A program made the translations under genes and the position numbers. Below, in pieces: positions 1-4,695 of a stretch of DNA of 4,695 nt (within the stretch, counting starts at the first letter, position 1; the number at the start of each line of letters is the position of its first letter). The notes beneath the pieces were generated by a model that worked only from the letters and a program-made list of their open reading frames with translations, ran no database searches and was not told the DNA's origin. This DNA is from a virus. Taxonomy: Duplodnaviria > Heunggongvirae > Uroviricota > Caudoviricetes. The stretch lies in the IMG/VR virus record IMGVR_UViG_2541047874_000001. One strand, written 5' to 3'.

Positions 1-1
1 A

Positions 2-592
2 GAACGCCGTGATCTGTTGAATAACGTTCTGCGCATTGGTGGTTTTATGACACCAAAAGGGAAGCCTAAAGTGCCGGAAGCACTGTTTAAAAACATCTGC
101 GACTCTCTCGGCCTAAAAACAGGAAAACGTCGCGGCAGAGATGGCGATAAGCGCCCGACATTGCGTTTTGTTGAGCCTGAGTCTGTAGCATTTATGCTTG
201 ATATTCTTGCGCAACGTCAGGAGGACGGTATGACGTTGAAAGCTCGCAAGGCGGAAAAATCAACGACCGAAGTGGATCGCGATTTGTCATTAAATATATA
301 TATGAATGGTGAAACGCGATCCACAAACACGGTGGAACAGGATTCCCCTCGTTCAGCTATATCACAGGCTTTGGCCGTATTGCCGGTGGCTGTTCCTGAG
401 TCCTGGGCGATGAGTGCTCTGCCATCAGCTGAACTGGAATCTATCAGGGGGTGGTCAGTTGACAGCATCGCATACACGTTTGCAGCCCTTTATATGACTG
501 AGTTTATGGATTTGCTGTCCGGTCATGAGATTAAGTTGCTGAAGGCTTTTATAGGCCCACGACATGCCAGCGATGAGTTTTGTGTAGTTTAG
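2..592 (+). CDS. 3' end of a larger ORF truncated by the window edge; probably C-terminus of a RepA-like replication (primase/helicase) protein. A stand-alone 181-aa protein starting at ATG 47 cannot be excluded
   Basis: Frame 2 is open from position 2 with no stop until TAG at 590..592. The listed TTG start at 17 has no SD. ATG at 47 is preceded by a weak GGTGG. I see no recognisable catalytic motif in these 196 residues, so the product call rests on synteny with N15 (repA adjacent to the antirepressor locus, same strand), not on sequence recognition. Confidence 0.45.
   Translation, partial: ERRDLLNNVLRIGGFMTPKGKPKVPEALFKNICDSLGLKTGKRRGRDGDKRPTLRFVEPESVAFMLDILAQRQEDGMTLKARKAEKSTTEVDRDLSLNIYMNGETRSTNTVEQDSPRSAISQALAVLPVAVPESWAMSALPSAELESIRGWSVDSIAYTFAALYMTEFMDLLSGHEIKLLKAFIGPRHASDEFCVV
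273..323. repeat. 9-bp inverted repeat (TGGATCGCG 273..281 / CGCGATCCA 315..323) flanking an AT-rich spacer with an (AT)5 tract at 294..303; each arm carries a GATC site
   Basis: Read directly from the sequence; it lies inside the coding region of the 2..592 ORF. One such 9-bp inverted repeat within 50 bp is roughly expected by chance in 4.7 kb, so significance is modest. Confidence 0.3.
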
Positions 593-1722: not shown

Positions 1723-2501
1723 GCGCGTTAGCTGTATTTTCGTTTCAGGAAGAGCATCAGGTTCGTGTAGTGATGATTGATAGCGATCCGTGGTTTGTAG
1801 CGGCTGATGTTTGTAATGCCATCGGGATTATCAATCATCGTGATGCTGTTGGTAAGTTGGATGAAGACGAAAAGGGGGTCGGTTCAACAGACACCCTTGG
1901 AGGTAAACAGGGAGTGACAATTATCAACGAATCCGGCCTCTATACCCTAATCCTCCGCTGCCGTGATGCGGTGAAGCAAGGCACAACAGCTTGGCGGTTT
2001 CGCAAATGGGTAACGAACGAAGTCTTGCCCTCTATTCGCAAAAATGGAGAGTACGTTTACATCGAGCCTGAGCCAATGCGAGCAGCAGAGCCGTTGAACT
2101 GGAGGCAGAAAGAGTATCTGCGAGGGCTGATTAACGATATAGCACAAAGTTTTCAGTACCGAAATGCCTGGATTAGCGGTGTATGGTTAGCTTTGCGTCG
2201 GGCGTGTCGTAATCCGTCCCCGAACCCCATAACTGTTGATGATTTGCCAGCAATTACGGCAGAACTGCGCCGGATTTTGACGGCTGCTGAGTCGGCATTG
2301 GGGAACATGCGCACGTATGAACGAGAGTTGTTGCGTGATGTTGTTCGTGGGGGTAGGCGGAGTATGTCGTGTGGTGATTTGCCCATCACCGATATTAACT
2401 CTGATCTGGAAAAGGCGTTACCCGCGCATTTTGAACTGGCAGTTCAAAAACTTGAGCAGTTATCCGCGCAGTTAAAGCCAGCAGAAATCACTAATAAATA
2501 G
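1719..2501 (+). CDS. Bro-N domain protein, phage antirepressor-like (260 aa)
   Basis: ATG at 1719 preceded by AAGGAGG (1708..1714). The N-terminal ~110 aa match the Bro-N pattern as I know it (FSFQ..VRVV..D..PWFVAADVCNAIGI...DAVGKLDEDEKG...INESGLYTLILR...A..F.KWVTNEVLPSIRKNGEYVY). The C-terminal ~130 aa do not look like the usual KilA-C/ANT domain to me. Confidence 0.85.
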   Translation: MSALAVFSFQEEHQVRVVMIDSDPWFVAADVCNAIGIINHRDAVGKLDEDEKGVGSTDTLGGKQGVTIINESGLYTLILRCRDAVKQGTTAWRFRKWVTNEVLPSIRKNGEYVYIEPEPMRAAEPLNWRQKEYLRGLINDIAQSFQYRNAWISGVWLALRRACRNPSPNPITVDDLPAITAELRRILTAAESALGNMRTYERELLRDVVRGGRRSMSCGDLPITDINSDLEKALPAHFELAVQKLEQLSAQLKPAEITNK

Positions 2502-2637
2502 GGTTGGCCAGCCCGAATTCATGCTCTTCTTAGTGAGGGGAAGTTTCGCAGTCGGGGCGGTGATGTCTGTGGTTGCAGCCGCGTTTCCACCGTTACTTCT
2601 GCCCTTTGCAGGGGGCGGGCGAGGCAGGCCACATAAC

Positions 2638-2663
2638 AAGGCACCGATTAATTCGGTGCCTTT
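2638..2663. terminator. Bidirectional terminator-like hairpin between the convergent antirepressor and protelomerase genes
   Basis: 10-bp perfect stem AAGGCACCGA (2638..2647) / TCGGTGCCTT (2653..2662), 5-nt loop TTAAT; 11 bp past the protelomerase stop (TAA, complement of 2674..2676) and 137 bp past the Bro-N gene stop. The T-tracts are short (3 Ts on +), so termination is likely partial. Confidence 0.5.
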
Positions 2664-2673
2664 AACGTATGCT

Positions 2674-4569
2674 TTAGCCGAAATATGTCAGCCATGCTAA
2701 CTGCATTGCTGACATGGGGCTGTTTGCACTGCCTGACCACGCATAATTCTGGCCATTATAATGAAACTCGACAACGTATGAGCCATCACCAATATTTCTC
2801 ACTGGCTTAAATACCGGCTTAGATACAGGCGAAGAAGGTGCAGGCGGTTGCTGTTCTTCTACGCTCTCTTCCTCTTCCTCTTCCTCTATCTCAATTTCGT
2901 CGTCATCCAGATCGTCATCCTCTGATAATTCATCCGCCAGTTCAGGTATTGCTTCCAGTTCTTCTTCGTCAGGCATAACGATTTCTGGAGTATCTATTTT
3001 CAGTTGCCATTGTCCGTTTTCGCCAACAAATTGCCCCAGAGCATCAGCAGCAAATTCCAGGTATCGACTAATCATTGTTGGGCTAAATTTGAACGCTCTT
3101 AGAGTGCTGTTCGTGATTTTTATAGAGGGGTCCTGCTCTACCAGCTGCTTAACTGTGTTATGCAGACGAACCCCGGCATCTCCTCTGGCGAATCCAGGCA
3201 TTTCGTCATCAAGCTGCTGCAATGCTTCCAGCCTGGTATTTTCGTTTCCAGTATTTGGCCTCCATGTCTTTGAGAAGTTGGCCAGCTTGAATTGCTTATA
3301 GTGTAATTGAGTGTTTTCATCGTCATGGCCTAAGATTTCCATAAAGAAAACATCCTCATCTACGTTTTTCCAACGAGGATCTACGCGGAAAAACATTTCA
3401 TACGCAATACGGGCATAAATAGCACGACTATCTTTATAAACACGGCGGTCATCTTTGAAAAATGATTTAACCCACGGGTTAAAAGCCTTTGCTAATATGG
3501 CATTAATACGTCCGTTTTCAGAGCGTGTGTCGTTATCTCCATAACCTTTAACGACATCATCAAAATCAGATGCTGCTGGGCATGAGCGAAGTACATTTAT
3601 TAAATAAACAAATGTTTTTGCTTCGCATAATGTATATATTTTTCTGGTTATATCATCAGAAGTTCTTTTTTTAGCTTGGCCTAAAAAATCAACGGTATAC
3701 TTACCAGAAACAGTAAATGTACCTTGATACATAATCTCAATCATTCGTCTTCCTGACAATGCAGCAAGTGCAAATGCCAAAGGAGCCATACCTGAACGAG
3801 TGTTTAGATTATTTAATGTAGCAGGGCTATTTATAATATCGTAAATAGCTTGCATATATTTAGGGTAATCAATGACCACCACGTTACGTTTCTTATTGTG
3901 CAGAACGTCCGCCCATCGTTGCTGGATAGATGCGCGTTCGGCAGGGCTTAGTTGAAGATGATAGAGAATCTCATGGTTAACTTTTAGCTGATTCAACTCC
4001 TCAAGCAAGGCAGATCCTTGCTGTAGTAATTTATATAAATAATCGCGCTTATCTTTCCAGTTATCGCTAGTTAAATCAGAAATGGCGAATTGCCACTCTT
4101 TATATTTATTTGATAATTTTAATAACTTATTATGACTTTTGTTATCACCAATTCTGATATTAGATAAATCTTCTGATAAAGGGAGAATTAATTTTAATTT
4201 TGCCTGTAAAGCTGACATTCTCTGTCGAATATCGGCAGCAGGTAGAGAAAGCCATGACAATAGCTCCTCATTATATAAAGGATACTTTTCAGATAGGCGA
4301 TGTATATTTTTTTCAAAGCTATGATGAAGTTTATCATCAAACCGTTTTCTGGCCCTGCTCATATAGGCATTGAATGTGTTGGCTGTAATTCTTTTTTCTA
4401 ATCCTTTCCCCCTAAACTTTCGCTTGTCATTAAATAATGCATTTTTAAATTTTAATGCAACAGCCTTTATTTTTTTTGTTTTTTCCCCTTGAGGACGGTC
4501 AGAGTTATCTATTGACTCAACATCGCTAACAAGTGAGTTTATTAATTCACCGATTTTTACTTTGCTCAT
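2674..4569 (-). CDS. telN: Protelomerase (telomere resolvase), TelN/TelK family, 631 aa
   Basis: The whole ORF reads as the TelN/TelK family from memory (MSKVKIGELIN..., NALFNDKRKFRGKGLEKRITANTFNAYMSRARKRFDDKLHHSF, SGRRMIEIM, RINAILAKAFNPWVKSF, KDSRAIYARIAYEMFFRVDPRW, ILGHDDENTQLHYKQFKLANF). 631 aa equals the length I recall for N15 TelN. The tyrosine in LHYKQF is residue 424 (codon TAT, complement of 3298..3300), the reported catalytic position; Arg275 and His415 are also present. SD GGAGAGGA lies 5 nt upstream of the ATG on the - strand. Confidence 0.93.
   Translation of the reverse strand: MSKVKIGELINSLVSDVESIDNSDRPQGEKTKKIKAVALKFKNALFNDKRKFRGKGLEKRITANTFNAYMSRARKRFDDKLHHSFEKNIHRLSEKYPLYNEELLSWLSLPAADIRQRMSALQAKLKLILPLSEDLSNIRIGDNKSHNKLLKLSNKYKEWQFAISDLTSDNWKDKRDYLYKLLQQGSALLEELNQLKVNHEILYHLQLSPAERASIQQRWADVLHNKKRNVVVIDYPKYMQAIYDIINSPATLNNLNTRSGMAPLAFALAALSGRRMIEIMYQGTFTVSGKYTVDFLGQAKKRTSDDITRKIYTLCEAKTFVYLINVLRSCPAASDFDDVVKGYGDNDTRSENGRINAILAKAFNPWVKSFFKDDRRVYKDSRAIYARIAYEMFFRVDPRWKNVDEDVFFMEILGHDDENTQLHYKQFKLANFSKTWRPNTGNENTRLEALQQLDDEMPGFARGDAGVRLHNTVKQLVEQDPSIKITNSTLRAFKFSPTMISRYLEFAADALGQFVGENGQWQLKIDTPEIVMPDEEELEAIPELADELSEDDDLDDDEIEIEEEEEEESVEEQQPPAPSSPVSKPVFKPVRNIGDGSYVVEFHYNGQNYAWSGSANSPMSAMQLAWLTYFG
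2851..2970 (-). other. Poly-acidic low-complexity tract within the protelomerase (residues about 534..573, including EEEEEEE), encoded by CTC/TTC repeats on the + strand
   Basis: Translation DEEELEAIPELADELSEDDDLDDDEIEIEEEEEEESVEE; the + strand reads ctcttcctcttcctcttcctc around 2861..2885. Confidence 0.8.
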
Positions 4570-4640
4570 CTTTCCTCTCCTGATTATCCGCTCGGATTAT
4601 CGTAACACAATTTGAGAATAAGATAACTAATAACGCGTTA
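4570..4640 (-). promoter_or_regulatory. Protelomerase 5' region: ribosome-binding site plus candidate operator or promoter repeats
   Basis: Direct repeat GATTATC at 4582..4588 and 4595..4601 (GATAAT, -10-like, on the - strand); 10-bp perfect palindrome TAACGCGTTA at 4631..4640; imperfect inverted repeat TATCCGCT (4585..4592) / AGCGGATA (4669..4676). No -35/-10 pair with good spacing identified. Confidence 0.25.
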
Positions 4641-4695
4641 ACTTAGCCACAAACTAACAGAACACAATAGCGGATAGTAAACAAAAACACAATAT

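Follow-up and report, generated by a model that had tools for sequence, protein, structure and literature searches.

A predicted N15-type protelomerase gene and its expected telomere-resolution site in an N15-like phage-plasmid

Introduction

Does the large gene at one end of a viral DNA stretch encode an enzyme that forms hairpin telomeres, and where is the site on which this enzyme would act? The question is raised by a 4,695-nt stretch of the IMG/VR virus record IMGVR_UViG_2541047874_000001 (Caudoviricetes), hereafter the window, meaning the whole stretch of DNA that was analyzed. An open reading frame (ORF) for 631 amino acids, telN, starts 126 bp short of the end of the window, and a reading made from the letters alone (the sequence-only reading) had assigned it to the protelomerases. 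N15-type protelomerases, together with the telRL sites on which they act, have been characterized genetically, biochemically, and structurally, and they are in biotechnological use for linear vectors, doggybone DNA, and TelN/tos cloning. The comparison with relatives described here leads us to conclude that the ORF is almost certainly TelN of an N15-like linear phage-plasmid, with its resolution site about 191 nt upstream of the gene and with hairpin telomeres presumably formed there.

Identity of the telN product

The gene and the codon of its predicted nucleophile are located as follows.

2674..4569, minus strand: telN, encoding a predicted 631-amino-acid TelN/TelK-type protelomerase (telomere resolvase); ATG start; assigned from domain, structure, and orthologue matches.
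3298..3300, minus strand: TAT codon for Tyr424, the predicted active-site nucleophile, aligned to Y424 of N15 and to the TelK tyrosine.

A profile search of the 631-amino-acid protein returned the Pfam protelomerase domains TelK_N (PF22853, residues 4-78, 2e-41), TelK_muzzle (PF20849, residues 81-198, 1.2e-50), ResT-TelK_cat (PF16684, residues 257-427, 4.5e-25), and TelK_stirrup (PF20818, residues 443-533, 3.4e-48), all four in canonical order and each above its gathering score. The sole match among solved structures was PDB 2v6e, the phiKO2 TelK-DNA complex (E=2.3e-295), which covered residues 1-536, and the product also matched phrog_5272 (E=1.7e-300). Alignments with the two characterized enzymes were full-length and included the catalytic region, with 492/635 identities (77%) to N15 gp29 (TelN), which likewise has 631 amino acids, and 480/639 identities (75%) to phiKO2 Gp26 (TelK). 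Taken with the Pfam and 2v6e matches, these alignments place the assignment as a protelomerase far above chance and bear out the family proposed from the letters alone: as judged from its sequence, the ORF at 2674..4569 is a TelN/TelK-type protelomerase.

The residue that had been named as catalytic, Tyr424, is indeed encoded by TAT at 3298..3300, and it pairs with Y424 of N15 TelN and with the corresponding tyrosine (Y425) of TelK in 2v6e, within a block (ILGHDDENTQLHYKQFKLANFS) that is invariant in the window TelN, N15 TelN, and phiKO2 TelK. A tyrosine nucleophile is established for TelN, TelK, and ResT. The catalytic domains of the window TelN and N15 TelN share 150/171 identities, and R275, K300, Y378, R382, H415, and Y424 of the window protein are the same in N15 TelN; the first five are presumably active-site residues, by analogy with TelK and ResT. 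The chemistry of the window enzyme is a prediction carried over from N15 TelN and phiKO2 TelK.

Conservation relative to N15 TelN was lowest in the acidic linker (residues 536-585, 52%) and in the C-terminal 46 residues (61%). Residues 536-631 (window 2677-2964) consist of this acidic low-complexity linker followed by a conserved C-terminal segment of about 45 amino acids (GDGSYVVEFHYNGQNYAWSG...), and they lie outside every Pfam protelomerase domain and outside the crystallized TelK fragment.

We considered whether the protein might instead be a conventional tyrosine recombinase, an integrase-like enzyme acting between two sites with no telomere resolution. Telomere resolvases act via a tyrosine nucleophile, and they have both their catalytic fold and their tyrosine chemistry in common with tyrosine recombinases and type IB topoisomerases (PMC11317167), a point in favor of this alternative. 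However, the TelK-specific muzzle and stirrup domains are present (1e-50 and 3e-48, rounded), the identity of 75-77% is to two biochemically characterized protelomerases, and the contig ends of the relatives described below are palindromic fold-backs and not att-like junctions, so that an integrase-like function is exceedingly improbable.

Position of the telomere-resolution site

The window stops before the site, and the position of the site was thus read in relatives past the equivalent of position 4695. Eleven relatives contain the core of the site: nine with an identical TelN (L004-L009 and L011-L013) together with L001 and L002, whose DNA identity to the window is 96.8% and 92.9%. The relevant features of the window itself are the following.

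4570..4695 (126 bp), minus strand: telN leader and predicted outer, telN-proximal part of the extended telomere-resolution region, from alignment with N15 and phiKO2.
4631..4640, no strand: 10-bp palindrome TAACGCGTTA, the longest perfect palindrome in 4570..4695.

In each of the 11 relatives, the site is a perfect palindrome with a length of at least 22 bp. Its 22-bp core, CCATTATACGCGCGTATAATGG, begins at 179-180 nt from the telN ATG and is centered at +190/191. The annotated N15 repeat, cut at 24802/3, has exactly this core; with the N15 telN ATG at 24995, the spacing is the same as in the relatives. The same spacing was found in phiKO2 (ATG at 29336, telRL at 29121-29170), which also has the same 22-bp core. 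These annotations agree with the earlier statement that the site lies directly upstream of the gene in N15 and phiKO2.

The 126 nucleotides of the window upstream of telN align column by column with the N15 stretch between the cut site and telN, and also with phiKO2. They show no mismatch to L010, the closest full-length relative, and one mismatch to L008, which runs on into the core palindrome. Past the equivalent of the window end, the sequence of YDC107_1 and PhiR46_1 reads CGGAAC(G/A)TTAAAATTTGTTCCTTGACTTTGTTCTGAAAATCAGCACATAATTTCCCATTATACGC and then GCGTATAATGG... Because the window ATG is at 4569 and the center in the relatives is at +190/191, the center in the window's molecule is placed at about 4760, and the core palindrome is predicted to occupy the positions 55-76 nt past 4695, with its center 65 nt past the window end. 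The supposition that the true site is probably beyond 4695 is thereby supported, since the 11 relatives carry a perfect palindrome centered at that distance. The continuation would be expected to read ...CGGAACGTTAAAAATTGTTCCTTGACTTTGTTCTGAAAATCAGCACATAAT(T/A)CCCCATTATACGC, followed by its own reverse complement in the hairpin form or by the sopA/sopB-side arm in the phage form. In the prophage state, no full palindrome would follow the window, because the DNA would end as a hairpin at +65.

Two candidates nearer to hand were examined and rejected. The palindrome TAACGCGTTA (4631..4640) is conserved in the clade but is not found in N15 or phiKO2, and palindromes of similar size occur elsewhere in the window. 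The end of the window itself (...CACAATAT) was considered as a hairpin tip; all relatives continue from there for 65 nt of non-palindromic sequence to the true center.

Hairpin-end signatures and extrachromosomal location of the relatives

An exact-protein lookup found the identical 631-amino-acid TelN in 292 blocks of public assemblies. By megablast, which covered phages, plasmids, and complete Escherichia coli genomes, the best match was the best annotated relative, Escherichia phage YDC107_1 (CP025712.1; Ravinvirus), with 96.8% identity over the whole window. The clade mates comprise YDC107_1, PhiR46_1, and phage-plasmids of E. coli, E. albertii, E. fergusonii, and Shigella, with TelN identical in many assemblies. 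Their differences from the window are point differences and mosaic swaps or insertions between repA and the C4 RNA (window ~593-957), and nothing else.

Five short-read contigs with an identical TelN (L008, L009, L011, L012, and L013) stop 55, 33, 23, 13, and 6 nt past the center, respectively, and in each of them the sequence past the center is the perfect reverse complement of the sequence before it. In L005, a perfect palindrome extends about the center with arms of 9,810 nt that reach the end of the locus DNA examined, giving two head-to-head telN copies. The YDC107_1 record (L001) contains a 368-nt perfect fold at 8330/8331, which goes on for more than 2 kb with a few errors. Both L005 and YDC107_1 are hairpin read-through artifacts in public records. 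The abrupt contig ends and orientation flips for which the sequence-only reading had suggested looking are thus both present, as fold-back ends in five relatives and as mirror-image read-throughs in two (L001 and L005).

The plasmid and phage records are consistent with this picture. The PhiR46_1 record (PV340565.1) has telL annotated at its end, many plasmid records stop 14-63 nt past the equivalent of the window end, and several plasmid records have 1.3 to 2 times the unit length and match the window twice. The 60-90 kb plasmid records that match the window twice probably have the same hairpin read-through cause. In L004, L006, and L007, an intact site (a 24-42-bp perfect palindrome) is followed by sopA/sopB and tail genes, which is the phage-form order, as in N15.

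Of the complete E. coli genomes, 5,426 in all, 17 contained the telN segment, at 23 places on plasmids and at none on a chromosome. This distribution bears on a further alternative, namely that the prophage is defective or integrated into the chromosome, with telN as a remnant, and that it has lost its site and no longer forms a linear hairpin replicon. The sole point in its favor is that the window stops before the site, which is therefore not directly visible. Against it, the ORF is intact and its exact protein recurs across the 292 assembly blocks, in relatives with the identical TelN the core palindrome is present and the N15-like gene set is complete, and the upstream arm of the window is identical or nearly so to that of site-bearing relatives. 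An integrated prophage is discarded because, in the complete E. coli genomes, 0 chromosomal places stand against 23 on plasmids, and we regard the relic explanation as a whole as very unlikely. The fold-backs, the flips, and the exclusively plasmid location of the relatives give indirect support instead to the linear, hairpin-ended replicon that had been proposed for the window.

Within the YDC107_1 "complete genome", the second telN copy is frameshifted and is annotated as three coding sequences (8522-10421).

Repeats in the telN leader

It had been stated that the 126 bp upstream of telN hold only a 10-bp palindrome. The longest palindrome is indeed 10 bp, but three copies of an 8-bp repeat, AACACAAT, had been overlooked.

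4604..4611, plus strand: AACACAAT repeat 1, about 157 nt from the predicted center; N15 has AACACAAT at -157, L007 the same, phiKO2 a one-base variant.
4661..4668, plus strand: AACACAAT repeat 2, about 100 nt from the predicted center; N15 has AACATAAT at -100, phiKO2 AACACAAT at -100, L007 the same as the window.
4686..4693, plus strand: AACACAAT repeat 3, about 75 nt from the predicted center; N15 has AACACAAC at -76, phiKO2 AACATAAT at -76, L007 the same as the window.

The window has three exact copies of AACACAAT against 0.26 expected, all of them within these 126 bp, and none of 200 shuffles reached three. When the telN-proximal arms of three lineages (the window's clade, N15, and phiKO2) were aligned, the complement ATT(G/A)TGTT appeared as three conserved islands amid diverged DNA, at about 157, 100, and 75-76 nt from the center. 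Because the repeats sit at fixed distances from the center, the window would hold the outer part of an extended site.

What the repeats do is a separate question. Since a 56-bp telRL is reported to be enough for cleaving-joining by N15 TelN in vivo and in vitro (PMC3540006), the AACACAAT repeats are probably auxiliary binding or regulatory elements. We tentatively suggest that they could be auxiliary TelN-binding sites, dispensable for catalysis, through which TelN caps the DNA next to the telomere and regulates its own promoter, which must lie in the terminal 191 nt of the linear plasmid. It is also possible, if far from assured, that they stand outside the TelN recognition region, as operators or promoter elements of another telN regulator or as partition- or replication-related motifs. 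The sufficiency of the 56-bp telRL, which leaves the outer repeats unneeded for catalysis, fits such a role. So does their placement in the stretch from the telomere to the telN ATG, which must contain the telN promoter. On the other hand, the motif resembles the outer arm of telRL, CACA(C/T)AAT, which adjoins the core; copies in the far arm have the opposite orientation, so that those of both arms point to the center; and the copies in the telN arm keep their distances in three lineages, a pattern expected of auxiliary sites for the same dimeric enzyme.

The repeats presumably belong to the extended "tos" of the N15 literature. If they are already part of "tos", the auxiliary-site reading merely adds detail to a known system.

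A second set of repeats lies directly upstream of the telN ribosome-binding site. There, two direct copies of GATTATC (4582 and 4595; region 4582-4601) flank a small inverted repeat, ATCCG..CGGAT. This arrangement is kept in the clade and is not found in N15 or phiKO2, and it may be a clade-specific operator.

Genomic context of telN

The remainder of the window contains the following features.

1..592: 3' end of repA, the large replication gene; phrog_4913, and so annotated in relatives.
Between repA and the RNAs: small ORFs.
1080-1156: isrK-like RNA (67 bits, above the Rfam gathering score).
1186-1272: C4-type antisense RNA (75 bits, above the Rfam gathering score).
1329-1492: icd-like ORF, named from the phiKO2 annotation.
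1489-1722: antA-like ORF, named from the phiKO2 annotation.
1719-2501: antB-like anti-repressor with a Bro-N domain, named from the phiKO2 annotation.
2521-2700, plus strand: ORF of 59 amino acids; phrog_35352, 1e-39; hypothetical in relatives.
2638..2662, no strand: hairpin with a 10-bp perfect stem (AAGGCACCGA..TCGGTGCCTT), just 3' of the telN stop, between the convergent antB and telN.

The gene order repA, C4 RNA, icd, antA, antB, telN is the same as in N15 and phiKO2, and the segment 1080-2501 is an anti-immunity module of the N15/phiKO2/P4 type. Synteny continues through telRL to sopA/sopB, a side that was read in L004, L006, and L007, and contigs with an identical TelN hold the full N15-like set, with tail genes, sopBA, cB/cro/Q, and repA. 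On the basis of this gene content, the window is assigned as a slice of an N15-like (Ravinvirus) phage-plasmid.

The hairpin at 2638-2662 has folding energies of -25.4 and -21.8 kcal/mol on the two strands, with z-scores of -5.5 and -5.3, and the phiKO2 annotation has a "putative bidirectional terminator" at the equivalent place; it is likely a bidirectional terminator of antB and telN. A consensus terminator scan did not call this hairpin, because no T-run follows it. The 59-amino-acid ORF crosses the hairpin and overlaps the 3' end of telN, and it could be a genuine small gene, or else GC-rich intergenic DNA whose annotation as a gene has been copied from record to record.

Several other observations concern variation within this region. 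The mosaic, insertion-prone zone (~593-957) is matched by some relatives only, and at window position ~675 the YDC107_1 sequence is longer by about 570 bp. In L009, an IS605 OrfB/TnpB-like gene (2288-3484) occupies the antB position, and plasmid records of this region carry ISKpn26 and IS200/IS605 transposases. Taken by itself, the C4 segment has matches of 80-90% identity in P4 cI and in several hundred E. coli chromosomes (P4-like or satellite prophages).

Comparison with characterized systems

The likeness to N15 extends from the protein (631 amino acids, 77% identity, Y424 kept) to the identical 22-bp core, the cut-to-ATG spacing of about 191 nt, the three arm repeats at matching positions, and the surrounding genes, with sopBA beyond the site and antB/antA/icd, the C4-type RNA, and repA on the near side. 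Unlike in N15, where the outer arms of telRL read TATCAGCACACAATTGCC, those of the window's clade read ATCAGCACATAATT(T/C/A)CC; the two arms of the relatives are less symmetrical outside the central 24-42 bp, and the DNA beyond the C4/icd region is too diverged for megablast.

The comparison with phiKO2 gave a similar result. TelK is 75% identical, the 2v6e match spans all four structural domains, the 22-bp core is the same, telRL is centered about 190 nt upstream of the gene, and the gene is followed by the bidirectional terminator and then antB/antA/icd. In contrast to the window's element, phiKO2 has a TelK of 640 amino acids with a longer acidic linker, a Klebsiella host, and a one-base variant of the first arm repeat.

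By its published description, the Tel/pal system of PY54 belongs to the same enzyme class and follows the same genome logic, with the site beside the tel gene. PY54 is more distant, tel and telN having about 60% sequence identity, and cleaving-joining has been shown for both N15 TelN and PY54 Tel (PMC3540006). In PY54 the site, a perfect palindrome of 42 bp, depends on its flanks in vivo (PMC3540006, PMC10612081). It shares with the N15 telRL the central 10 nt TACGCGCGTA (PMC3540006), which are therefore also present in the core of the window's relatives.

Discussion

The analysis established the protein family and orthology of the window TelN, the site in relatives with an identical TelN, the signatures at their contig ends, and their extrachromosomal location; from these we infer how this molecule continues past 4695 and what the AACACAAT repeats might do.

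By analogy with the characterized enzymes, the injected genome would first circularize, and TelN dimers would bind the palindromic telRL centered about 191 nt upstream of the telN start codon. Staggered cuts would be made around the center via a covalent 3'-phosphotyrosyl intermediate at Tyr424, after which each self-complementary overhang would fold back and be resealed on itself, yielding two hairpin telomeres. The same reaction would resolve the duplicated telomeres after replication of the plasmid. The linear plasmid would be circularly permuted relative to the virion DNA and would carry telN at one extreme end, about 191 nt from the tip, so that position ~4760 would be the hairpin tip, or the center of the palindrome in phage-form DNA. 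The staggered cuts, the fold-back, and the genome layout have been described (PMC10612081).

Several results weigh against this interpretation. Since the window stops short, the site in its own molecule is predicted from relatives, and no exact match to the last 40 nt of the window was found in the viral and metagenome collections. Likewise, no record identical to the window was found among phages, plasmids, and complete E. coli genomes. L010, a draft contig (JASYTQ010000045.1, GCA_030469895.1) that matches the window over its full length without gaps at 99.74%, ends just before the core in adapter sequence (L010:1-40), which we take to be the mosaic end of the Nextera adapter (CTGTCTCTTATACACATC), standing where the core palindrome would be expected. 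A telomeric contig end in a public assembly would then be contaminated with adapter. Finally, a sigma-70 scan of 4570..4695 gave no clear telN promoter.

The telN system of the window is already known: it is a textbook N15-type protelomerase in a well-sampled element, and it carries little weight as a discovery, as the exact TelN protein is already in hundreds of public assemblies. Assemblies of such elements often carry artifacts at the telomere, in the form of fold-back ends, mirror-image duplications, false circularization, and adapter remnants. The value of the result lies in annotation, where the window can be labeled as part of an N15-like linear phage-plasmid whose hairpin tip, or telRL center, is expected about 65 nt past its end. 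If the AACACAAT repeats are auxiliary TelN sites, they would couple the occupancy of the telomere to the supply of the enzyme.

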